The notes below the pieces were generated by a model. It was not told the DNA's origin. It worked only from the letters and a program-made list of their open reading frames with translations, and did no database searches. This document shows, piece by piece, positions 1-15,342 of a stretch of DNA of 64,000 bases (positions are counted from its first letter, which is position 1; each line of letters begins with the position of its first letter). A program made the position numbers and the translations under genes. This DNA comes from Escherichia coli (GTDB lineage: Bacteria > Pseudomonadota > Gammaproteobacteria > Enterobacterales > Enterobacteriaceae): NCBI RefSeq assembly GCF_048403405.1, contig NZ_CP183129.1; one strand, written 5' to 3'.

Positions 1-2
1 AT

Positions 3-551
3 CCGGTCAGCGATAACGCGGCGCTGACTGGGTTAAGTAAGCTTTTCCGGCACATTCAACCCGCCGTGAACGATCCTCAGGATCTGCGCGCAAAACTGGA
101 AATGCTGTGGGCGTCTTACTATGGCGGCGTAGCGATAACCCATGCGGGCACGCATCTCGTTCATGCGCTCTCCTACCCGTTAGGTGGCAAATATCATCTG
201 CCGCATGGCGTCGCGAATGCCATCTTGCTGGCGCCGTGCATGGCGTTTGTTCGCCCCTGGGCGGTCGAGAAATTTGCCCGGGTCTGGGATTGCATTCCCG
301 ATGCGGAAACCGCCCTGAGCGCGGAAGAAAAATCTCATGCCCTGGTGGCCTGGCTACAGGCATTAGTCAATCAACTCAAGCTACCCAACAATCTCGCGGA
401 TCTCGGCGTACCGCCAGAGGATATTGCCTCTCTTAGCGAGGCGGCACTGAACGTGAAGCGCCTTATGAACAATGCGCCGTGCCAGCTTGATCTACAGGAC
501 GTACAGGCCATTTACCAAACACTGTTTCCGCAACATCAATTTAAGGAATAA
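3..551 (+). CDS. Iron-containing alcohol dehydrogenase family protein, C-terminal part (gene continues upstream of the window)
   Basis: Open frame runs from the window edge to the stop at 551. The His-rich motif THAGTHLVHALSYPLGGKYHLPHGVANAILL resembles the metal-binding region of FucO/YqhD-type Fe-ADHs. The stop lies 3 nt before the next start codon. Confidence 0.6.
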   Translation, partial: PVSDNAALTGLSKLFRHIQPAVNDPQDLRAKLEMLWASYYGGVAITHAGTHLVHALSYPLGGKYHLPHGVANAILLAPCMAFVRPWAVEKFARVWDCIPDAETALSAEEKSHALVAWLQALVNQLKLPNNLADLGVPPEDIASLSEAALNVKRLMNNAPCQLDLQDVQAIYQTLFPQHQFKE

Positions 552-554
552 ATC

Positions 555-1442
555 ATGCCGAAAACCATTGAAGGTGTATTAACCGCCATCGTCACCCCGT
601 TTACCGCGACCGGCAGTCTGAATATCCCGGCGTTAAAAGTGCAGGTGAATCGTCAACTGGAAGCGGGTAACGCGATTTTTTGCGGCGGCACCAACGGCGA
701 GTTTTTTGTGTTGAATGAACAGGAGAAGCTCAGCGTTACGCAAACCTGCGTGGATGAAGTGGCTGGTCGTGCGCCGGTCGTGGCACACATTGGCGAGATC
801 TCGACGCGCGAAACGATTCGTCTGGGTCAGCAGATTGAAAAACTTGGCGTAGATGCTGTGTCGGTCATTACCCCTTACTTCGTACCGCTGAAACAGGAAG
901 AGTTGATTGCGCATTACAGCGCAATTGCCGACGCGCTGAGCATTCCGATGTTTCTCTATAACATCCCGGCCCGCACTGGCAATACGATCCAGCCGGAAAC
1001 CGCGCGTGCTCTGGCGTCGCATCCCAATATCATTGGGATTAAAGACAGCGCCGGAAGCGACGAAAGCCTGAAGGGTTTTCTCGATGCTGTGCGCAACATT
1101 GACGGCTTTAATGTACTCAACGGCCCGGATTCGCTGATCCATAAAGGGTTTGTCGAGGGGTGTTCAGCCTGTATCTCTGGGCTCGCCAACGTCGCACCGC
1201 GGGAAATCAATGCTATCTGGTCTCGCGTCCATGCCGGTGATATTGAAGGGTCTTATGAAGCACAGGAGAGTGTAACGGGCCTGCGTACCGACCTTTATAA
1301 AGTAGCGTTCTCCCCGGCTGCGGTGAAAAAAGCGTTGCAGCTTATGGGGCATGATGTTGGTGATAGCCGCTACGCGGTTAATTTCACGCCTGAACAGATC
1401 AGCGAGATTCAACAAATTATTCGTCATTATAACATTAATTAA
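555..1442 (+). CDS. DHDPS/N-acetylneuraminate-lyase family class I aldolase
   Basis: 295 aa. GGTNGEF motif resembles GTTGES of DapA; PYF and IIGIKDSAG contain the conserved Tyr and the Schiff-base Lys context of the DapA/NanA/KDG-aldolase family. RBS AAGGA lies upstream. Confidence 0.7.
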   Translation: MPKTIEGVLTAIVTPFTATGSLNIPALKVQVNRQLEAGNAIFCGGTNGEFFVLNEQEKLSVTQTCVDEVAGRAPVVAHIGEISTRETIRLGQQIEKLGVDAVSVITPYFVPLKQEELIAHYSAIADALSIPMFLYNIPARTGNTIQPETARALASHPNIIGIKDSAGSDESLKGFLDAVRNIDGFNVLNGPDSLIHKGFVEGCSACISGLANVAPREINAIWSRVHAGDIEGSYEAQESVTGLRTDLYKVAFSPAAVKKALQLMGHDVGDSRYAVNFTPEQISEIQQIIRHYNIN

Positions 1443-1501
1443 ATTAACTCTATTATCCAGCCCGCGATAAAGTTTAGATAAAGAGAATAAAGGATTACTC
1501 C

Positions 1502-2260
1502 ATGTTTTTGTGGTTTATGCAGCCAGATATCTGGCTCACTTTAATTACCCTCACCTTTCTGGAAATTATTCTTGGGGTGGATAATATTATTTTTCTTTCA
1601 CTGGTGGTGGCAAAACTTCCGTTATCACAACAAAATATGGCGCGTAAACTGGGTTTAAGCTGCGCGATGATTATGCGGATATTATTGCTGATATCCATTG
1701 CGTGGCTTTCACATATTACCCAGCCGCTTTTTACCGTGCTGACGCTGGAGATTTCGTTCCGCACGTTGATTCTGCTCGGGGGCGGGCTGTTCCTGATTTA
1801 TAAAGCGATACAGGAGATACGCGAAGAGCTGTCGCCCGCGCAGGAAGACGAACATGGCAGCGGATCGCGGCAACTGTCGTTGTGCGGTGCCATCGTACAG
1901 ATAATGCTGCTCGATATCGTGTTTAGCCTGGATTCGGTGATCACCGCCGTCGGCCTTTCTCAGCATATATTTATCATGATTGCCGCCGTAATGATTGCCG
2001 TCGGTGTCATGATGTTTGCGGCGAAAACAATTGGTGATTTCGTTAACGCCACGCCGTCAATAAAAATACTGGCGTTAACCTTTTTATTATTTGTCGGTGT
2101 ATTGCTGGTTGCCGATAGTCTCAACATTCATATTGCCAAAGAGTATCTCTACTTCGCGATATTTTTCTCATTAAGTGTTGAGACACTCAATATTATCCGT
2201 GAAAGAAGAAATAAAAAAGTTTCGACATTGATCGAAACGCATGAATCGCACTCGCATTAA
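1502..2260 (+). CDS. TerC/YgdQ-like (UPF0053) integral membrane protein
   Basis: 252 aa polytopic protein with LEIILGVDNIIFLSLVVAKLP and LDIVFSLDSVITAVG motifs typical of the TerC family. AAAGGA RBS. Visibly lower G+C (about 40 percent by eye) than its neighbours. Confidence 0.6.
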   Translation: MFLWFMQPDIWLTLITLTFLEIILGVDNIIFLSLVVAKLPLSQQNMARKLGLSCAMIMRILLLISIAWLSHITQPLFTVLTLEISFRTLILLGGGLFLIYKAIQEIREELSPAQEDEHGSGSRQLSLCGAIVQIMLLDIVFSLDSVITAVGLSQHIFIMIAAVMIAVGVMMFAAKTIGDFVNATPSIKILALTFLLFVGVLLVADSLNIHIAKEYLYFAIFFSLSVETLNIIRERRNKKVSTLIETHESHSH

Positions 2261-2295
2261 TAAATCTATTACCGACTTTAAGATGGAGTCTAACT

Positions 2296-3465
2296 ATGTC
2301 TGTAGCCCTTATTCGTGACGGCGTCATCCGTCCATCCGAAAACGATTCGCATGTGCTTACCGCCATGCTGCCCTCGTCCTGCCCACAAAACCACGCGGCG
2401 AATATTCTGCCTTTGCCGGATGGCGCGTTAATGTGCGTCTGGTTTGCGGGAACGCAGGAAGGTATTGCCGATATTTCTGTCTGGGGATCGCGATTGCCCG
2501 CTGGCGGGATGCAGTGGAGCGATGCGGTCAAACTTTCCCACGATGACACGCGTTCAGAGCAAAACCCAGTGCTGTTTCTCGCGCCGGATAACGTGCTGTG
2601 GCTGCTATGGACCGCACAAATATCCGGGAATCAGGACACCGCCATCGTCCGCTACCGTAAGTCAGACGACCTCGGACAAACCTGGGGCGAGATTGCCACG
2701 CTGCTCGATAAACCCGGCACGTTCATTCGCCAGCCGATCACGGTGCTTGATAACGGCAACTGGCTGCTGCCCGTCTTTTATTGCCGTACCCAACCCGGTG
2801 AAAAATGGGTCGGCAATGATGATATCAGCGCAGTGAAAATTTCCGCTGACGGTGGTCACTCCTGGCGCGATGTCGTGGTGCCGCAAAGTCTCGGCTGCGT
2901 TCATATGAATATCACAATGCTGCACGACAGTACGTTGGTTGCTCTCTTTCGAAGCCGTTGGGCAGACAACATCTATATCAGCCATTCAGTGGACAACGGC
3001 GAGAGTTGGTCGGTGCCGCAAGCTACCGAATTGCCCAACAACAATTCGTCTATTCAGGTAACGACGCTTGCCAGCGGCGAACTGGCGCTGGTGTACAACG
3101 CGATGAGTGCGGCAGGCGCAGTAGAACGTCGCGCGTCGCTTTATGACGAAATCGACGATGGCGACGACAGCCGCAAAGAACCGACAGCCGTCGGACGCTC
3201 CGCTTTCTGGGGGGCCCCACGCGCGCCGATGACGGTAGCGATTTCTGCCGATGGTGGGAAAAGCTGGCCGTGGCGGCGCAATCTCGATGAAGGCGACGGC
3301 TACTGCATGACCAACAATTCCCTGGAAAAGCTAAATCGTGAGTTCTCCTACCCCAGCATCAAACAAAGCCCGGACGGTACGCTACATATCGCTTACACCT
3401 GGTGGCGTCAGGCCATCAAGTACGTGCGCATCTCCCCCGAGTGGGTTAAGGGGCAGGCATCATGA
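2296..3465 (+). CDS. BNR/Asp-box repeat sialidase-like beta-propeller protein (GH33-like), apparently cytoplasmic
   Basis: 389 aa with four Asp-box motifs (SDDLGQTW, SADGGHSW, SVDNGESW, SADGGKSW). The N-terminus has no hydrophobic signal peptide. GGAG RBS. Confidence 0.65.
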   Translation: MSVALIRDGVIRPSENDSHVLTAMLPSSCPQNHAANILPLPDGALMCVWFAGTQEGIADISVWGSRLPAGGMQWSDAVKLSHDDTRSEQNPVLFLAPDNVLWLLWTAQISGNQDTAIVRYRKSDDLGQTWGEIATLLDKPGTFIRQPITVLDNGNWLLPVFYCRTQPGEKWVGNDDISAVKISADGGHSWRDVVVPQSLGCVHMNITMLHDSTLVALFRSRWADNIYISHSVDNGESWSVPQATELPNNNSSIQVTTLASGELALVYNAMSAAGAVERRASLYDEIDDGDDSRKEPTAVGRSAFWGAPRAPMTVAISADGGKSWPWRRNLDEGDGYCMTNNSLEKLNREFSYPSIKQSPDGTLHIAYTWWRQAIKYVRISPEWVKGQAS

Positions 3466-3932
3466 TTATCGGTAATCTCAACCATTTGTCGCTGGCGGGG
3501 CTTCCCGCCTGGGTGAGAAATATTCTGCTGTGCCCGGAGTGTTCGTTATCGGCGTTATCCGCCAGAGAGGACGGTCGCTGGCAACCTGAAGGATGTCGGT
3601 GGTTCTGCACGCTGGGAACTTCAGACACGCAACCCGCCGAACTCCGCCATACGGAGTATCACCATCTGTGGGCCGATATCCAGGTGGTGATTACTGGTTG
3701 TGAGGGCATTAATGCGGGAACGCGGCCCATCGCTCGCGAAAACGATGAAGAACGTAAGCCCGATCTGTTTATCGCCCCATCCCCTGAAAACAGTGTCGCC
3801 ATCACTCTACACCCCGGTGATTTCGCCGTCTTTATGCCTGAGGAACCTCACCAGGCGCTGTGCGCGATTGGCGCGGCTACGTCAGTACGCAAAGCGGTCT
3901 TTAAGGTACCGCGCGACATGCTGGAAGCCTAA
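3462..3932 (+). CDS. YhcH/YjgK/YiaL (DUF386) family protein, NanQ/EbgC-like
   Basis: 156 aa. C-terminal GDFAVFMPEEPH closely matches the conserved motif of E. coli YhcH. Start codon overlaps the upstream stop (ATGA), suggesting translational coupling. Confidence 0.65.
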   Translation: MIIGNLNHLSLAGLPAWVRNILLCPECSLSALSAREDGRWQPEGCRWFCTLGTSDTQPAELRHTEYHHLWADIQVVITGCEGINAGTRPIARENDEERKPDLFIAPSPENSVAITLHPGDFAVFMPEEPHQALCAIGAATSVRKAVFKVPRDMLEA

Positions 3933-3945
3933 AAGGAGAGAAAAA

Positions 3946-5226
3946 ATGACAATGGAAATGATCCTGGCATTAGGAATACTGGTCCTGATGATCGTGCTGA
4001 TCATGTCGGACAAAATGCCATTTGGCGCACCGCCACTGCTTGCGTGTTTATTGCTGGTTGTCTCGGGACTTTCGACCGTTCAACAGGCTTTTGCCGGATT
4101 CGTCAATCCAAGCGTGGTGATGATTGCAGGGTTTATGGTGGTCATGGCAGCGCTACAAAAAACCCGGCTTATCAGCAACGTTAAATCTGCGATGATAAGC
4201 CTGGTCAATAAAGGCAGTTACCGCAGCTACGGGCTGTTGTTAGTCATTGTTATGCTGGGTGCCAGTCTTGCAGGCACCGGCGCGACCGGTTATTACGTGC
4301 TGATTCTGTCGCTGGTATCCACCATTCCGTACAGTAAAAAGCTACCAACATCGAAATTAATGATGCCCCTGGGATTTGCCACCAACCACCCGCTTCTTCC
4401 TATCAATCTCGCGCTTCTCTTTGGCGTTACGGCGACCGTACTCGAAACCGCGGGTTTTCATCAGGAGATTTCGATGGGGCGCTTTGCGCTGGTGAATCTC
4501 ATCATGTCAGCGGCGTTCCTCGCATGGAGTCTTATTGCCTACCGTTTTCTTCCGGATCATCCCATTGCGGATGCTTCCGAGGATGCGCTGGCGGCACGCG
4601 AGGAAACGTTTAACGCCCTTCCTGCCTGGAAAGAATATTGCACTATTGCCGCATTCGCTGTCAGCGTTATCGGCATGATGCTAATGAACATTCTGGGAAA
4701 TATCGCCTTCGTTATTCCGGGTCTTGCGGGTGCGTTTGTTCTGATGATCGATGTACTGGACTTTAAAGAAGTTCGCGATCATATGGGAGCGCCGGTCATT
4801 TTAATGATGGCGGGGGTGATCGGTGTAGCTGATGCACTGGCGGGCACCGGCTTTACGGCGATGGTTGGCGATGCCGTTGCAGGTGTGCTCGGTTCTGGCG
4901 TCTCACCGTTTGTATTTATTGTCGCCTTTGCTTTGCTTACCAGTACCTGCGCCACCTTCACGGGTTCGAATATGGGGTCTGTTTATATTTTTGCCCCCAT
5001 CGCCATTGCCGCCTGTACCAGCCTTGGGCTTAACCCGACCGCTGCAGCGATTGCGGTGGTGATTTCAGGCTGGAACGGCGGCTATATGCCTATTGACGGA
5101 ATGCCAGCCATGATCCTCGGAATGGGGAAATACAAACTTCCCGAATTCTGGGTGTTCTCTGTACCAATGTATCTCATCCGCATTCTGGCGCTTTGTGCAG
5201 GCGCTGTTTTTATCTTCCCAATGTAA
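3946..5226 (+). CDS. Polytopic permease with two-repeat architecture (ion-transporter superfamily-like; exact family unresolved)
   Basis: 427 aa from the ATG preceded by a strong AAGGAG RBS; the ORF track's longer 508-aa frame overlaps the upstream gene. Multiple hydrophobic segments and an internal repeat (NPSVVMIAGFMVV / GAPVILMMAGVIGV). Confidence 0.5.
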   Translation: MTMEMILALGILVLMIVLIMSDKMPFGAPPLLACLLLVVSGLSTVQQAFAGFVNPSVVMIAGFMVVMAALQKTRLISNVKSAMISLVNKGSYRSYGLLLVIVMLGASLAGTGATGYYVLILSLVSTIPYSKKLPTSKLMMPLGFATNHPLLPINLALLFGVTATVLETAGFHQEISMGRFALVNLIMSAAFLAWSLIAYRFLPDHPIADASEDALAAREETFNALPAWKEYCTIAAFAVSVIGMMLMNILGNIAFVIPGLAGAFVLMIDVLDFKEVRDHMGAPVILMMAGVIGVADALAGTGFTAMVGDAVAGVLGSGVSPFVFIVAFALLTSTCATFTGSNMGSVYIFAPIAIAACTSLGLNPTAAAIAVVISGWNGGYMPIDGMPAMILGMGKYKLPEFWVFSVPMYLIRILALCAGAVFIFPM

Positions 5227-5233
5227 TCTCAGA

Positions 5234-5271
5234 CAAAAAAAGCGGCAGAGAAGATCCCTGCCGCTTTTTAT
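5234..5271. terminator. Bidirectional rho-independent terminator between the convergent permease gene and nagE
   Basis: A-tract, GC hairpin AGCGGCAG...CTGCCGCT, then T-tract. Confidence 0.55.
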
Positions 5272-5314
5272 TGTTGGATGCGACGCTGCCGTGTCGCATC
5301 AGGTATAAAGCAGA

Positions 5315-7261
5315 TTACTTTTTGATTTCATACAGCGGCGTTTGACCCGCCACGACATGGCCCTGAGCTTTAATGATCAAGCCGCTGAAATCGTCGATAT
5401 TGCTGCAAACCACCGGGCTAATCATCGAGCGGGCGTTAGCGTTCAGGTAATCCAGATCCATTTCCAGAATCGGTTGTCCTGCGCTTACCTGCGCGCCCTC
5501 TTCCACCAGACGTTTAAAACCTTTACCTTCCAGCGCTACGGTGTCGATACCCATATGGACGACGATCTCCGCGCCTTTTTCGGTTTCCAGGCAGAACGCG
5601 TGGTTGGTATTGAAGATTTTCACGATTGTCCCTGCGGCTGGTGATACGACGATTTTATCTGTCGGTTTCACCGCCACACCGTCACCCACCGCTTTGCTGG
5701 CGAATGCTTCGTCAGGAACCTGATCCAGTGCCACAACATCACCGGTAATCGGCGATACCAGCTCCGCGACAGACACCGCGTTTGGTATAGCCTGCGGTTT
5801 TGCTACAGGCGCGGCAGTTGCAGGCGCAGTTTCAGCTGACGTAGCGGCTACCGGACCACGGGCAACAACTTTCTTCATTGCATCGCCAATGGATTCCGCT
5901 TTCGCGCCAACAATCACCTGAATAGTCTGTTTGTTCAGTTTCACTACCCCAGAAGCACCCAGCCGTTTACACATCGCATCGTTGACGCGAGCCGAGTCAA
6001 CCACGGTCAGGCGCAGACGAGTAATACAGGCGTCAATTGCTTTCAGGTTGTCAGTGCCGCCAACCGCAGCAATATAGTTGGTCGCCAGTTGATTGAGGCC
6101 TTCTTCAGTGTTGCTGTTGGCTTCTTCAGTAACGATCTCATCTTCTTTATCTTCACGACCCGGCGTTTTCAGGTTGAACATGCGGATAACCAAACTGAAC
6201 ACCACGAAGTAGATAGCGAAGAAGACAACACCCATCACCAGCAGCATCCAGACGTTCTGGCTGGCGGCCGGCAGGTTATACATCAACGCGTAGTCGATAG
6301 CCCCCGCAGAGAAGGAGAAGCCCGCGTGGATACCCAGCAGCGTTGCCACAAACAGGCTGATACCGGTCAGCAGTGCGTGCAGGAGGTACAGCAGCGGCGC
6401 AAGGAACATGAACAGGAATTCCAGCGGCTCAGTCACACCGGTCAGGAACGCAGTAACAGCAACAGAAAGCAGCATACCGCCAACCATCGGACGACGCTCT
6501 TTCGGTGCTGCAAAGTACATCGCCAGCGCCGCACCCGGCAGACCGAACATCATGATCGGGAAGAAGCCGGACATGAACATCCCCGCGGTGCCGTCACCGG
6601 CATAGAAGCGGTTGATGTCACCGTGGAAAACCGTACCCGCCGCGTTGGTGAATTCACCAATCTGGAACCAGGCGATGGTGTTCAGTACCTGATGCAGACC
6701 GGTTGGGATCAGCAGACGGTTGATGAAACCAAAGATACCGGAACCCAGCGCGCCCGCAGAAACGATCCACTCGCCGCCTGCATGGATAGCGTGCTGTACC
6801 GGCGGCCAGACGTAACCAAAAATGGCCGCCAGCACCAGGCAGAAGAAGCCGGTGGCAATCGGCACAAAGCGTTTGCCGCCGAAGAAACTCAGGAAGTCCG
6901 GCAGTTTAATATCGGACCAACGGTTATAAGCTGCGCCACCAACCAGACCGGTAATGATACCCGCCAGTACACCCATGTTAATTTCCGGGTTGATGGTCAC
7001 CATCGCTTTGGTTAACACAAAGTAACCTACCGCACCCGCCAGCGCCGCCGCACCTGCGCTGTCTTTCGACCAGCTGGATGCCACACCGATGGCGAAGATT
7101 AATGCGAGGTTATCAAAAATCGCACCGCCCGCCTGGGCAATAAACGCAACGTTAAGTAAATCTGGCTGACCGAATCGCAGCAACAGCGCCGCCACCGGCA
7201 GCACCGCGATAGGGAGCTGTAACGCCCTACCGAGTCGCTGGAAAAAACCTAAAATATTCAT
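5315..7261 (-). CDS. nagE: PTS N-acetylglucosamine-specific EIICBA component
   Basis: 648 aa; sequence and position divergent from nagB match E. coli NagE. Confidence 0.93.
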   Translation of the reverse strand: MNILGFFQRLGRALQLPIAVLPVAALLLRFGQPDLLNVAFIAQAGGAIFDNLALIFAIGVASSWSKDSAGAAALAGAVGYFVLTKAMVTINPEINMGVLAGIITGLVGGAAYNRWSDIKLPDFLSFFGGKRFVPIATGFFCLVLAAIFGYVWPPVQHAIHAGGEWIVSAGALGSGIFGFINRLLIPTGLHQVLNTIAWFQIGEFTNAAGTVFHGDINRFYAGDGTAGMFMSGFFPIMMFGLPGAALAMYFAAPKERRPMVGGMLLSVAVTAFLTGVTEPLEFLFMFLAPLLYLLHALLTGISLFVATLLGIHAGFSFSAGAIDYALMYNLPAASQNVWMLLVMGVVFFAIYFVVFSLVIRMFNLKTPGREDKEDEIVTEEANSNTEEGLNQLATNYIAAVGGTDNLKAIDACITRLRLTVVDSARVNDAMCKRLGASGVVKLNKQTIQVIVGAKAESIGDAMKKVVARGPVAATSAETAPATAAPVAKPQAIPNAVSVAELVSPITGDVVALDQVPDEAFASKAVGDGVAVKPTDKIVVSPAAGTIVKIFNTNHAFCLETEKGAEIVVHMGIDTVALEGKGFKRLVEEGAQVSAGQPILEMDLDYLNANARSMISPVVCSNIDDFSGLIIKAQGHVVAGQTPLYEIKK

Positions 7262-7593
7262 CTTATTCCCCCTACGAGAACCCTATTTGGCTCGTTTAAA
7301 GCCGTATTTTTATTTTGCTGCAAATTGTACTGCCGATGTTCTGTAATCAGATTGTTAGATCATCTGCTACAGAGTGTGTGAAAATTTAATTCGTATCGCA
7401 AATTAAACGCGTGTCTTTTGTGAGTTTTGTCACCAAATATCGTTATCATCACTCCCTTTTACTGGCTAAACCAGAAAACTTATTTTATCATTCAAAAAAT
7501 CAGGTCGGATTGACGCCTGTCTGCGCAAATCCAGGTTACGCTTAAAGATGCCTAATCCGCCAACGGCTTACATTTTACTTATTGAGGTGAATA
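7262..7593. promoter_or_regulatory. Divergent nagE / nagBACD control region with CRP site and NagC operator-like palindrome
   Basis: CRP-like site TGTGAgttttgTCACC at 7419-7434; AT-rich palindrome TTAATTCGTATCGCAAATTAA at about 7386-7406 resembles a NagC operator. Confidence 0.55.
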
Positions 7594-9602
<2,009 letters not shown>

Positions 9603-9610
9603 GAGAAAGT

Positions 9611-10831
9611 ATGACACCAGGCGGACAAGCTCAGATAGGTAATGTTGATCTCGTAAAACAGCTTAACAGCGCGGCGGTTTATCGCTTGATTGACCAGTAC
9701 GGGCCAATCTCGCGGATTCAGATTGCCGAGCAAAGCCAGCTTGCCCCCGCCAGCGTAACCAAAATTACGCGTCAGCTTATCGAACGCGGGCTGATTAAAG
9801 AAGTTGATCAGCAGGCCTCCACCGGGGGCCGCCGCGCTATCTCTATCGTCACCGAAACCCGCAATTTCCACGCAATCGGCGTACGGCTTGGTCGTCACGA
9901 CGCCACCATCACTCTGTTTGATCTCAGTAGCAAAGTGCTGGCAGAAGAACATTACCCGCTGCCGGAACGTACCCAGCAGACGCTGGAACATGCCCTGCTG
10001 AATGCCATTGCTCAGTTTATTGATAGCTACCAGCGCAAACTGCGCGAGCTGATCGCCATTTCCGTGATCCTGCCAGGACTTGTTGACCCGGACAGCGGCA
10101 AAATTCATTACATGCCGCATATTCAGGTAGAAAACTGGGGGCTGGTAGAAGCTCTGGAAGAACGTTTTAAAGTGACCTGTTTCGTCGGTCACGATATCCG
10201 TAGTCTGGCGCTGGCGGAGCACTACTTCGGTGCAAGTCAGGATTGCGAAGACTCCATTCTGGTGCGTGTACATCGCGGAACCGGGGCCGGGATTATCTCT
10301 AACGGGCGCATTTTTATTGGCCGCAACGGTAACGTCGGTGAAATTGGCCATATTCAGGTCGAACCGCTGGGTGAACGCTGCCACTGCGGCAACTTTGGCT
10401 GCCTGGAAACTATCGCCGCCAACGCTGCCATTGAACAACGGGTGTTGAATCTGTTAAAGCAGGGCTACCAGAGCCGTGTGCCACTGGACGACTGCACCAT
10501 CAAAACTATCTGCAAAGCCGCGAACAAAGGCGATAGCCTGGCGTCGGAAGTGATTGAGTATGTCGGTCGTCATCTGGGCAAAACCATCGCCATTGCTATC
10601 AACTTATTTAATCCGCAAAAAATTGTTATTGCCGGTGAGATCACCGAAGCCGATAAAGTGCTGCTCCCTGCTATTGAAAGCTGCATTAATACCCAGGCGC
10701 TGAAGGCGTTTCGTACTAATCTGCCGGTGGTACGTTCTGAGCTGGATCACCGCTCGGCAATCGGCGCTTTTGCGCTGGTAAAACGCGCCATGCTCAACGG
10801 TATTTTGCTCCAGCATTTGCTGGAAAATTAA
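9611..10831 (+). CDS. nagC: ROK-family transcriptional regulator of the nag regulon
   Basis: 406 aa; N-terminal HTH then ROK sugar-kinase-like domain; synteny. Confidence 0.93.
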   Translation: MTPGGQAQIGNVDLVKQLNSAAVYRLIDQYGPISRIQIAEQSQLAPASVTKITRQLIERGLIKEVDQQASTGGRRAISIVTETRNFHAIGVRLGRHDATITLFDLSSKVLAEEHYPLPERTQQTLEHALLNAIAQFIDSYQRKLRELIAISVILPGLVDPDSGKIHYMPHIQVENWGLVEALEERFKVTCFVGHDIRSLALAEHYFGASQDCEDSILVRVHRGTGAGIISNGRIFIGRNGNVGEIGHIQVEPLGERCHCGNFGCLETIAANAAIEQRVLNLLKQGYQSRVPLDDCTIKTICKAANKGDSLASEVIEYVGRHLGKTIAIAINLFNPQKIVIAGEITEADKVLLPAIESCINTQALKAFRTNLPVVRSELDHRSAIGAFALVKRAMLNGILLQHLLEN

Positions 10832-10878
10832 TGTGCTTTTATAGTGGCGCTTATTGTTGTCAATATTCTGGGTAGTCC

Positions 10879-11631
10879 ATGACCATTAAAAATGTAATTT
10901 GCGATATCGACGGCGTGCTGATGCACGATAACGTCGCCGTACCGGGTGCAGCGGAATTTTTGCACGGGATTATGGATAAAGGCCTGCCGCTGGTGTTGCT
11001 GACCAACTATCCTTCGCAGACCGGGCAAGATCTGGCGAACCGCTTTGCCACTGCCGGTGTCGATGTACCGGATAGCGTGTTTTATACCTCCGCGATGGCA
11101 ACCGCCGATTTCCTGCGTCGCCAGGAAGGCAAGAAAGCATATGTGGTGGGCGAAGGCGCACTGATTCATGAACTGTACAAAGCCGGTTTCACTATTACCG
11201 ATGTGAACCCTGATTTTGTGATTGTTGGCGAAACGCGTTCCTACAACTGGGACATGATGCATAAAGCAGCCTATTTCGTCGCTAACGGTGCACGCTTTAT
11301 CGCCACCAACCCGGACACCCACGGGCGCGGTTTTTATCCCGCGTGTGGCGCGTTGTGTGCAGGCATCGAAAAAATCTCCGGGCGTAAACCGTTCTATGTT
11401 GGTAAACCGAGTCCGTGGATCATCCGCGCAGCATTAAACAAAATGCAGGCGCATTCGGAAGAAACAGTGATTGTCGGCGATAACCTGCGTACCGATATTC
11501 TGGCGGGCTTCCAGGCCGGTCTGGAGACGATTCTGGTACTCTCTGGCGTTTCGTCGCTCGACGATATCGACAGTATGCCATTCCGCCCCAGCTGGATTTA
11601 CCCATCGGTCGCTGAAATCGACGTTATCTGA
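10879..11631 (+). CDS. nagD: HAD-superfamily UMP phosphatase
   Basis: 250 aa; DxDG HAD motif (ICDIDGVL); synteny after nagC. Confidence 0.9.
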   Translation: MTIKNVICDIDGVLMHDNVAVPGAAEFLHGIMDKGLPLVLLTNYPSQTGQDLANRFATAGVDVPDSVFYTSAMATADFLRRQEGKKAYVVGEGALIHELYKAGFTITDVNPDFVIVGETRSYNWDMMHKAAYFVANGARFIATNPDTHGRGFYPACGALCAGIEKISGRKPFYVGKPSPWIIRAALNKMQAHSEETVIVGDNLRTDILAGFQAGLETILVLSGVSSLDDIDSMPFRPSWIYPSVAEIDVI

Positions 11632-14757: not shown

Positions 14758-15342
14758 ATGAATTATCAGCTATTCTCACCATTCTTTACCAAAGTCATCA
14801 TGCTGCTTATCGCATTGCTTTGCATTGTTCTTGCCTCATTTGGTATTTCTGCCCCATTTTGTTACATCGTTTTTATCGGCATCATTTTCCCCGTTGCTAT
14901 ATCAATGCGCATACACCGTCTCAATGAAACAGGAACAGCACTCACACTAACCGAAAGCTCACACTGGATCGTTTACATCCATGGTTTTCCAGCTGAGGAA
15001 CAACGTGAAGTTTTGAAAAACCCCTGTTTCTGGTCAACAGAAAGAGTGAAACAGTTTTTCCTTCGCGGTCTTGCTGGCAAGGTTATTCTTCAACTCGCCT
15101 GCCTTGCACTTCTGGTCAATGAATATTTCCGCTCAACACCAGGTTCCGGGCAAGACTTACTCGCAGCAGGCGTGCTGTTTTTTATTTTGTTTTCGATAAG
15201 CAAAAATTTCTGGACGATGTATCTTCTCGCCACAGATAAATGGCAGTGCGAATCCCTGACCACCACCAGCGGTAGCCTTTGGTATCAGGGATTTCTGTGT
15301 AAAGGAAACAGAAGAGTTACGCTGTTTTCGCGGCTGGTGTAA
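14758..15342 (+). CDS. Hypothetical small polytopic membrane protein (194 aa), AT-rich, no recognisable family
   Basis: ORF with AAGGA RBS 8 nt upstream; about four predicted hydrophobic helices. G+C roughly 40 percent by eye against about 50 percent for neighbours. Stop lies 6 nt from the convergent ubiF stop. Confidence 0.45.
   Translation: MNYQLFSPFFTKVIMLLIALLCIVLASFGISAPFCYIVFIGIIFPVAISMRIHRLNETGTALTLTESSHWIVYIHGFPAEEQREVLKNPCFWSTERVKQFFLRGLAGKVILQLACLALLVNEYFRSTPGSGQDLLAAGVLFFILFSISKNFWTMYLLATDKWQCESLTTTSGSLWYQGFLCKGNRRVTLFSRLV

Follow-up and report, generated by a model that had tools for sequence, protein, structure and literature searches.

The TerC gene of the glnS/nagE island

The DNA analyzed here, referred to as the window, is a 64,000-nucleotide stretch of Escherichia coli (contig NZ_CP183129.1), and its subject is a TerC-family gene at positions 1502–2260 of the plus strand, one of the nine genes of an island between glnS and nagE. 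Gene annotations were read in the near-identical E. coli GN02461 (NZ_CP095533.1, 1716005–1780004, reverse complement), which shows 5 mismatches to the window. The leftward arm of the island encodes a DeoR regulator, a PdxA-like dehydrogenase (annotated as D-threonate-4-phosphate dehydrogenase), and a DUF1537 kinase (annotated as dtnK). The rightward arm runs in the order iron-containing alcohol dehydrogenase (Fe-ADH), DHDPS-family aldolase, TerC, BNR_2, YhcH/DUF386, and SLC13-like permease, and the window begins inside the Fe-ADH gene. Comparison with homologous clusters showed that TerC belongs to one of two cluster architectures, the one served by the SLC13-like permease, and that genes for divalent-cation exporters recur beside this architecture in other lineages.

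The island corresponds to the uncharacterised region "GR 6 nagE..glnS" of extraintestinal pathogenic and adherent-invasive E. coli (ExPEC/AIEC), which is shared by APEC O1 (avian pathogenic E. coli), IMT5155, RS218, IHE3034, CFT073, and LF82 (PMC12928451). Neither the TerC gene nor the alternative architectures appear in that account; TerC goes unmentioned because it is split by IS1 in the reference strain of the study, BEN2908. We found no literature treating this island TerC gene.

The open reading frame is real, starts with ATG, and encodes 252 amino acids, and an AGGA ribosome binding site (RBS) ends 7 nt before the start codon. A sequence-only reading of this stretch had described a TerC/YgdQ-like membrane protein with its own RBS and short flanking gaps, and these descriptions were borne out. 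Pfam TerC (PF03741) matched at an E value of 4.3e-46 with 157.3 bits against a cut-off of 27.8, spanning profile positions 1–177 of 178, and protein identity to YgdQ orthologues was 61–64% (66% DNA identity to E. coli ygdQ). A Kyte-Doolittle scan revealed six clear hydrophobic segments and a weaker seventh at residues 215–233. Four of the five acidic residues that Alx requires for Mn2+ export (E86, D92, E213, D216, and D222; PMC10197570) are present: E21, D27, D138, and D144 of the island protein align with Alx E86, D92, D216, and D222 and are invariant in all of the aligned island TerC, YgdQ, and Alx proteins. The remaining residue, E213, corresponds to M135, and YgdQ also has Met at this site. 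Among the NCBIfam subfamily models, YkoY scored 85.6 bits against a cut-off of 138.5 and YjbE 67.4 against 134.8, and the Alx model gave no match.

YgdQ (E. coli b2832), a UPF0053/TerC-only inner-membrane protein, is the closest sequence relative of the island TerC. The two proteins fall into the same length class, share both acidic motifs and a probable layout of roughly seven transmembrane segments, and have no C-terminal CBS/CorC domains. Unlike YgdQ, the island TerC sits in a DeoR-type catabolic operon and extends past the end of YgdQ by a C-terminal tail of about 15 amino acids, which varies among island TerC proteins. The island clade is equidistant from all enterobacterial YgdQ orthologues (57–64% identity), which are 76–91% identical to one another across Enterobacterales; within Enterobacteriaceae, island TerC proteins are 64–77% identical to one another, as compared with 86–91% for YgdQ. 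On the sequence distances, the island TerC is best described as a diverged, faster-evolving paralogue of YgdQ and not as its orthologue. Word-indexed and exhaustive representative searches for a donor gave nothing closer than enterobacterial YgdQ, with the next families at 50–55%. Housekeeping ygdQ was present in essentially all of the E. coli genomes searched, and carriers of the island keep it as a second locus. It lies between mutH and ygdR-tas, whereas the island gene stands outside this mutH-ygdQ-ygdR-tas synteny, and the earlier remark that TerC is not normally associated with sugar catabolism is fair. YgdQ is a target of the small RNA MgrR (PMC6239178), and an E. coli ygdQ knock-out lacks Ca-dependent CaCO3 precipitation, for which uptake of an organic calcium salt followed by Ca2+ export has been proposed as a model (PMC12707652).

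The Mn2+ exporters and metal chaperones Alx (YgjT) and Bacillus subtilis MeeF/MeeY (YceF/YkoY) belong to the same Pfam family. The island TerC is only 22% identical to Alx and lacks its N-terminal extension; whereas Alx, YkoY, and YjbE are under yybP-ykoY riboswitch control, the island gene is not, and its context is catabolic rather than stress-related or stand-alone. No Rfam match to the yybP-ykoY Mn riboswitch was obtained in window positions 1–6000 at E <= 1 or in six orthologous loci at the gathering score, and the E. coli leader is only 59 nt long, so an Mn riboswitch upstream of TerC was rejected. Leaders of TerC-type islands range from 59 to 280 nt and are conserved in neither length nor sequence except for the RBS. 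An own promoter or terminator for TerC was likewise rejected, as consensus matches were no higher than the shuffled expectation (promoters, 6 against 5.0 +/- 2.9; terminators, 9 against 6.3 +/- 2.6). The TerC of the terZABCDEF tellurite-resistance operon, from which the family takes its name, is a further member, and the annotation shows no ter genes in the 14 kb to the left or right of the island TerC. The tellurite test proposed in the sequence-only reading is unlikely to yield much information.

Two cluster architectures and the cation exporters beside one of them

The BNR_2 neighbor served as an unbiased probe and yielded 80 clusters from species-representative genomes, which we mapped with the nine island proteins. 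Eight of the 80 clusters contained TerC together with the SLC13-like permease. In 71 clusters, a 470-aa sodium:solute symporter (Pfam SSF) lay exactly between the aldolase and BNR_2, and a short-chain dehydrogenase/reductase (SDR) gene followed YhcH; none of these 71 had TerC or SLC13 within 10 kb. Hosts of the symporter type included Enterobacter, Leclercia, Lelliottia, Kosakonia, Pantoea, Erwinia, Pectobacterium, Dickeya, Rahnella, Budvicia, Tolumonas, and others. Searches of TerC-type islands for remnants of the symporter or SDR returned only noise (E about 4–6). Being so widely distributed and so deeply diverged, the symporter type is probably the older form, and on this deeper timescale TerC is secondary to the cluster, having taken the symporter slot at a transporter swap.

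Phylogenetic analysis indicated that modules of the island have recombined. Monophyly of the TerC-type islands on the concatenated backbone was rejected (0/100 bootstraps). In Metakosakonia and Salmonella enterica subsp. salamae, the left arm of the island (DeoR, PdxA, ADH) grouped with symporter-type islands of related genera (91% to Phytobacter), whereas the BNR + YhcH tree united all TerC-type islands (78% bootstrap). From these conflicting groupings we infer that the TerC-BNR-YhcH-SLC13 module recombined into foreign backbones at least twice. The resulting evolutionary anatomy, in which a widespread acid-sugar cluster contains a derived transporter module that recombines and includes TerC, is very probably correct.

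In Escherichia sp. MOD1-EC7003 (locus L012), the SLC13 gene at 8040–9320 is 75% identical to that of E. coli and 88–89% to Kluyvera alleles, and the other eight island genes are 92–100% identical to E. coli, a pattern suggesting that recombination replaced the allele of the last gene. Metagenome contig ERZ783967 NODE_350 (L093) carries at 2049–2765 a mosaic TerC in the order ADH-DHDPS-TerC-ygdR-tas. Residues 1–80 of this protein are 100% identical to the Klebsiella oxytoca island TerC and residues 161–238 are 96% identical to a YgdQ. Given the mosaic structure and a coverage of 3.5x, this locus was rejected as an evolutionary intermediate and is taken as an assembly chimera or a recent recombinant of both paralogues.

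SLC13-type clusters with a gene for a divalent-cation exporter showed about six independent arrangements, comprising three unrelated TerC lineages and three Ca-type P-type ATPases. One is the island-TerC clade, with TerC between the aldolase and BNR_2. An island in an Aeromonas assembly has the order BNR-YhcH-SLC13-TerC-KdgM-family porin, a low-GC segment in flanks of 54–63% GC, and its TerC is 80% identical to YgdQ and only 55–57% identical to the island clade. On a 37%-GC metagenome contig, whose genes run BNR-SLC13-TerC, the TerC protein shares only 27% identity with YgdQ (Pfam E 2e-47), and its gene is followed on the opposite strand by unrelated folate genes. Among the ATPases, that of a Clostridia-like lineage (881 aa) is encoded divergently beside the cluster, and it matches Ca-translocating SERCA/PMR1 models best (E 1e-190), narrowly missing the equivalog cut-offs. 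Enterococcus raffinosus encodes a 910-aa P-type ATPase directly after SLC13, an arrangement repeated in a second species at 78% DNA identity, and a 64%-GC contig shows BNR-DUF386-P-type ATPase.

As a control, we inspected 10 kb on either side of 72 loci without TerC/SLC13 (71 of them symporter-type); TerC was found in 0/72, and the only P-type ATPase hit was weak and 9 kb away. Because the exporter families have a handful of copies per genome, we roughly estimate that adjacency by chance would occur in well under 1% of cases per lineage, which places six of roughly a dozen lineages far from chance. TerC relatives transport Ca2+ and/or Mn2+ (PMC12096827), and one class of Mn riboswitch can control either TerC proteins or a PII-type Mn2+/Ca2+ ATPase (PMC6649816, PMC10197570), a class that the two share in some bacteria (PMC6649816). 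The PII-type Ca2+/Mn2+ ATPases (Streptococcus pneumoniae MgtA/CaxP, Listeria LMCA1, and yeast PMR1) are ATP-driven proteins of 880–910 aa with a fold unrelated to that of the island TerC, a 252-aa secondary carrier. We read the presence of such ATPases in the place of TerC in three other lineages as non-orthologous replacement; the E. coli island itself contains no P-type ATPase of this kind. The convergent pairing of SLC13-type clusters with cation pumps is the new element of this analysis.

The permease itself has a distribution of its own. In the clusters of the Firmicutes Anaeromicropila herbilytica, Bacillus salacetis, E. raffinosus, and the Clostridia-like gut lineage, it is 74–78% identical to that of E. 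coli, whereas the accompanying enzymes are only 25–47% identical. This difference clearly points to transfer of the permease gene alone across phyla, and the B. salacetis permease gene is GC-richer than its neighbors (GC at third codon positions, GC3, 0.50 vs 0.35–0.43). SLC13 was present in every TerC-type cluster and is the cognate importer of the pathway, and homologous clusters in Firmicutes rely on SLC13 alone. The importer is the symporter or SLC13 depending on the cluster version, and an ABC transporter serves in the Sinorhizobium meliloti version (PMC12928451).

The features of the locus are collected in Table 1. The aldolase, which is conserved in all cluster types, scored below the cut-offs of the dapA and nanA equivalogs, and the YhcH protein scored below that of the N-acetylneuraminate anomerase equivalog. 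The SLC13-like permease reached 56 bits with NCBIfam dass, below the cut-off, and matched no other NCBIfam transporter model at E <= 0.001. For none of TerC, the permease, and BNR_2 did sequence matching return a solved structure. BNR_2 lacks a signal peptide and a hydrophobic N-terminus and is probably cytoplasmic; the other products considered in the E. coli island are a regulator, a permease, and cytoplasmic enzymes, and none is secreted. No repeats, insertion sequence (IS) elements, or integrase were seen at the TerC junctions, and plasmid carriage of the E. coli-type module was not found, the only plasmid hits being two in Firmicutes.

Table 1. Features of the TerC locus in window coordinates and, where a locus identifier is given, in homologous clusters
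Feature	Position	Strand	Remarks
Iron-containing alcohol dehydrogenase, 3' part	1..551	+	First gene of rightward operon, cut by window start; Pfam ADH_Fe_C E 1.4e-32
DHDPS/NanA-family class I aldolase, upstream neighbor of TerC	555..1442	+	Pfam DHDPS E 1.1e-61
Intergenic region, 59 nt, 34% GC	1443..1501	+	Contains TerC RBS, AGGA at 1491-1494
TerC-family gene, 252 aa, YgdQ-like paralogue	1502..2260	+	Pfam TerC; annotated "TerC family protein", WP_000480546.1
First acidic intramembrane motif, LEIILGVDN (E21, D27, N28)	1559..1585	+	Alignment with Alx
G5 run, site of inactivating 1-bp deletion	1778..1782	+	UTI89 allele G4, annotated as frameshifted
Second acidic intramembrane motif, DIVFSLDS (D138, D144)	1913..1936	+	Alignment with Alx
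AAATAAA, deleted in UTI89-type allele (7 bp)	2209..2215	+	Non-conserved C-terminal tail; alignment with UTI89
Gap between TerC and BNR_2, 35 nt, 31% GC	2261-2295		Sequence
BNR_2 "sialidase family" gene, downstream neighbor of TerC	2296..3465	+	Pfam BNR_2 E 8.7e-64
YhcH/DUF386 gene, NanQ anomerase family	3462..3932	+	Pfam DUF386 E 2.2e-26
SLC13/DASS-like anion permease, importer of this cluster version	3946..5226	+	Pfam PF03600 87 bits, Na_sulph_symp 48 bits
SLC13-like permease in homologous clusters	L095 10001-11281; L096 10001-11284; L100 9001-10275; L103 13941-15221		
Region behind the putative ulosaric-acid route	Window 1-5226 and left arm L001 8805-11782		

Conservation, loss, and base composition of TerC

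TerC and the DHDPS-TerC-BNR block were found in the identical 1047 of 5426 complete E. coli genomes. All 1047 carriers cover at least 80% of the block, no genome has the island without TerC (0/1047), and TerC did not enter the E. coli island recently. Beyond E. coli, at least six other enterobacterial genera have TerC in the same island position, as do 20 metagenome contigs. Orthologues of 253 aa with 70–80% identity were found in S. enterica subsp. salamae, Kluyvera, the K. oxytoca group, and Metakosakonia, and the Pseudocitrobacter orthologue is 91–92% identical. Where flanks were read (Salmonella, Kluyvera, K. oxytoca, and Metakosakonia), the cluster lies between yneJ/sad and marC-marRAB, not between glnS and nagE. 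The dN/dS of TerC was 0.04–0.08, the same as for the neighboring genes, with dS between lineages saturated (>1). The secondary insertion proposed in the sequence-only reading therefore fails for E. coli, where all of the islands contain the gene, and stands on the deeper scale, where 71 of the 80 clusters have the symporter in its slot. That reading would have been refuted by homologous islands always containing the gene in one place with a defined function; its position is indeed constant within the island type, but most homologous islands do not contain it.

Citrobacter rodentium retains TerC in a reduced cluster, ADH-DHDPS-TerC-BNR-SLC13 (5871–11281 of locus L097), in which the gene has a GC of 0.43 and a GC3 of 0.47 against 0.54–0.58 and 0.62–0.67 in its neighbors. 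This cluster is widespread in C. rodentium data (227 index blocks), yet it lacks the regulator, kinase, PdxA, and YhcH.

Within E. coli, TerC is an accessory, dispensable gene. The G5 run is intact in 922 complete genomes and shortened to G4 in 124, among them UTI89, IMT5155, ATCC 11775, and many APEC strains (ST95-like); the UTI89 G4 allele leads to a stop after about 96 codons. The resident ygdQ may be redundant with the frameshifted TerC. Insertions are seen as well, with IS1 inside TerC in BEN2908 (NZ_LR740776.1) and, independently, an IS110-family element inside the DHDPS gene in NZ_OZ039653.1. The protein database further contains truncated or fused forms of TerC (P0006, P0037, P0041, and P0042). 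The C-terminal tail contains a minus-strand terminator-like hairpin at 2219–2238 with an 8-bp stem and a T6 tail. The 7-bp deletion of ST95-like strains falls in the adjoining A-run (2209–2218), and tail peptides differ among islands; the hairpin may be a relic of a former 3' untranslated region now read through, or may have arisen by chance.

The GC content of TerC is 44.4%, the third lowest of the 60 window genes (z -2.1), as compared with 52.1% in DHDPS, 56.8% in BNR, 56.5% in YhcH, and 51.6% in SLC13. The sequence-only reading had estimated about 40% over the first 60 nt, and the measured value is exactly 40.0%. By codon position, GC was 47.8% (GC1), 32.4% (GC2), and 53.0% (GC3, z -0.64). 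The TerC amino acids under host codon usage predict a GC of 47.6% against a core mean of 52.5%, which leaves residuals of -3.0 points for GC (z -1.26) and -6.2 points for GC3 (z -0.96). Within the E. coli window, the synonymous composition of TerC is not a significant outlier, and the deficit comes mainly from the first and second codon positions. In codon-usage fit TerC ranks last in the island (z -1.7), level with YhcH; the native paralogue ygdQ (GC 49.9%, GC3 57.6%) shows no residual.

Comparison of ten orthologous islands from hosts of 51–58% GC gave a different result. TerC GC3 was 0.115 +/- 0.043 below the mean of the other eight genes and was the lowest of the nine genes in 9/10 islands, for example 0.52 against 0.63–0.75 in K. 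oxytoca. In the same ten islands the deviation of SLC13 was -0.006, and that of the same-slot symporter in its own clusters was +0.017 +/- 0.037 (n=44). The AT bias is therefore not a general membrane-protein effect, since the symporter shows no such deficit. This persistent, gene-specific AT bias at synonymous sites is robust, so that the compositional distinctness suggested by the sequence-only reading, undetectable as a significant synonymous signal in the window alone, does emerge across islands (GC3 -0.115). Either a low-GC import that has ameliorated incompletely or selection for AT-rich codons may account for it.

The strongest compositional outlier in the window is a different gene, a 585-bp "hypothetical protein" gene at 14758–15342 between the tRNA Met-Leu-Gln cluster and ubiF. 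With a GC of 44%, a GC3 of 0.45, a GC3 residual z of -2.4, and a codon-fit z of -2.4, it looks clearly more foreign than TerC.

Proposed role of TerC and competing explanations

The recurrence of cation exporters beside one importer type suggests, as the most likely role of the island TerC, that of a Ca2+/Mn2+ efflux partner of SLC13-type uptake, a proposal to which we give a little less than even weight. In this account, the symporter and SDR set was replaced in an Enterobacteriaceae lineage, with TerC entering the symporter slot and the SLC13/DASS-like permease placed at the operon end, and the TerC-BNR-YhcH-SLC13 module then spread by recombination to other backbones and to E. coli between glnS and nagE. 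The symporter version would take up its substrate with Na+, and in the SLC13-type version the substrate would be an anion with stronger chelating power, probably a dicarboxylate, that enters along with a divalent cation; alternatively, catabolism of the sugar acid would release a bound cation. A co-expressed exporter would return the cation, namely TerC in Proteobacteria and one low-GC lineage and a Ca-type ATPase elsewhere, and TerC expression would follow the operon rather than a metal riboswitch. For the combination of swap, module spread, and cation export as a whole, we regard the chances as evenly balanced.

Several observations weigh against the efflux role. A dead TerC copy is present in 124 of the 1047 E. 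coli carriers (~12%), all of which keep housekeeping ygdQ, and in UTI89 the other eight island genes are intact beside the frameshifted TerC. No exporter was found beside the SLC13-type clusters of Anaeromicropila, B. salacetis, and Subdoligranulum, for which good flanks were available, and several partial metagenome loci of the SLC13 type also show none. Within Enterobacteriaceae, TerC and SLC13 flank the same 1.6 kb and could be co-inherited by linkage alone. The homology of the permease, a match to only a broad Pfam model and a sub-cut-off DASS score, does not point to metal-complex transport. Co-transcription of TerC with the operon is predicted only from the 59-nt and 35-nt gaps and the lack of a convincing terminator. 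The efflux model also leaves the persistently low TerC GC3 unexplained.

Some of these observations would be expected if TerC were a ygdQ-like copy caught by accident at the transporter swap and kept by tight linkage with no role in the pathway. The frameshift in 124 E. coli genomes is the main support for such an accident, together with the IS1 hit in BEN2908, and the pathway works without TerC in 71 symporter-type and three Firmicutes SLC13-type clusters. The Aeromonas TerC, at 80% identity nearly a housekeeping YgdQ, could derive from the flank of a donor, and the island TerC evolves faster than YgdQ in Enterobacteriaceae. A useless gene is harder to reconcile with a dN/dS that, over saturated dS, equals that of the catabolic genes, with invariant acidic motifs, and with the retention of TerC in the stripped-down C. 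rodentium cluster; about six independent gains of two unrelated exporter kinds, against 0/72 controls, would also be hard to obtain by accident. We consider accidental capture rather unlikely. The idea that an AT-rich donor recently supplied the gene to the E. coli island, suggested by the low GC of the gene (44.4% against 52–57% in its neighbors), its AT-rich gaps, and a codon-usage fit tied with YhcH as the poorest in the island, has hardly any probability left and is refuted on the E. coli timescale: none of the 1047 islands lacks TerC, same-position orthologues in other genera have diverged to 68–80% identity (91–92% in Pseudocitrobacter) with dS >1, the GC deficit in E. coli stems mostly from amino-acid composition, and the junctions have no repeats, IS elements, or integrase.

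Other functions can be assigned to a membrane protein in this position. TerC belongs to the LysE superfamily, which includes amino-acid and metabolite exporters (PMC10550928, PMC12096827), and it might help SLC13 to bring in the substrate or else rid the cell of a toxic intermediate or by-product; its occupation of the exact symporter slot of the other cluster type and its place in a catabolic operon without a metal riboswitch would fit. Yet every cluster version already has a dedicated importer, and TerC is therefore not the substrate importer, so the unusual uptake component envisaged in the sequence-only reading is not supported. The export component considered there fares better, with a metal cation as the probable cargo instead of a pathway metabolite: conservation falls on the residues of the TerC metal site, no organic substrate has been reported for any TerC-family member (PMC10550928), and Ca-type P-type ATPases, which are unable to carry sugar acids, hold the equivalent position in three lineages. 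Metabolite transport by TerC is improbable on these grounds. B. subtilis TerC proteins metalate exoenzymes in secretion and support surfactin export (PMC10550928, PMC12096827), and a chaperone like MeeF/MeeY could deliver Mn2+/Ca2+ to a periplasmic or outer-membrane component of the pathway, which would fit the KdgM-family porin adjoining the Aeromonas TerC. The E. coli island encodes no secreted protein, its BNR_2 protein has no signal peptide, and symporter-type clusters with the same enzymes need no helper, which makes such a chaperone quite improbable.

TerC proteins are widespread and have so far been understood only as riboswitch-controlled Mn2+ exporters or metal chaperones. In this island, a YgdQ-type gene forms a built-in part of a catabolic operon under substrate regulation, and in other phyla unrelated cation pumps replace it with one importer kind only. 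This pattern offers an experimental handle on the cargo of YgdQ-type TerC proteins, on metal-carboxylate transport by the SLC13-like permease family, and on the food source of the glnS/nagE island, which is typical of B2/ExPEC strains (UTI89, CFT073, 536, Nissle 1917, and LF82). Import of a metal chelate with return of the metal, if true, would give the YgdQ branch of the TerC family its first physiological role, establish a new "import chelate, export metal" transport pair, and provide a substrate for an ExPEC-associated island. If the coupling to uptake is wrong, the gene is merely a conserved accessory paralogue and the finding is ordinary.

A more specific version of the efflux proposal, which we consider unlikely as it stands, is that the SLC13-like permease imports a strongly chelating sugar di-acid as a Ca2+ or Mn2+ complex and that a YgdQ-type TerC or, in other phyla, a Ca-type ATPase returns the cation. 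The candidate substrate is 3-deoxy-D-lyxo-heptulosaric acid (Dha) from the pectic polysaccharide rhamnogalacturonan II (RG-II). The enzyme set, consisting of a cytoplasmic BNR_2 hydrolase, a YhcH ring-opener, the aldolase, Fe-ADH, a DUF1537 kinase, and PdxA2, suggests a 3-deoxy-2-ulosaric acid. By our own stereochemical reasoning, Dha would be cleaved to pyruvate and a threo C4 uronate semialdehyde, which would be converted to D-threonate and then to dihydroxyacetone phosphate (DHAP) and CO2, the predicted order of action being aldolase, Fe-ADH, DtnK, and PdxA2; this route matches the dtnK and PdxA2 annotations. We found no literature linking heptulosaric acid with threonate. The plant-associated hosts of the symporter type and the KdgM-family porin (L099) fit a pectic source. 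A 225-aa SDR always accompanies the symporter (11639–12316 in L018, and all symporter-type loci), whereas SLC13-type clusters have none, and the two cluster types may act on different oxidation states, for example a mono-acid and a di-acid.

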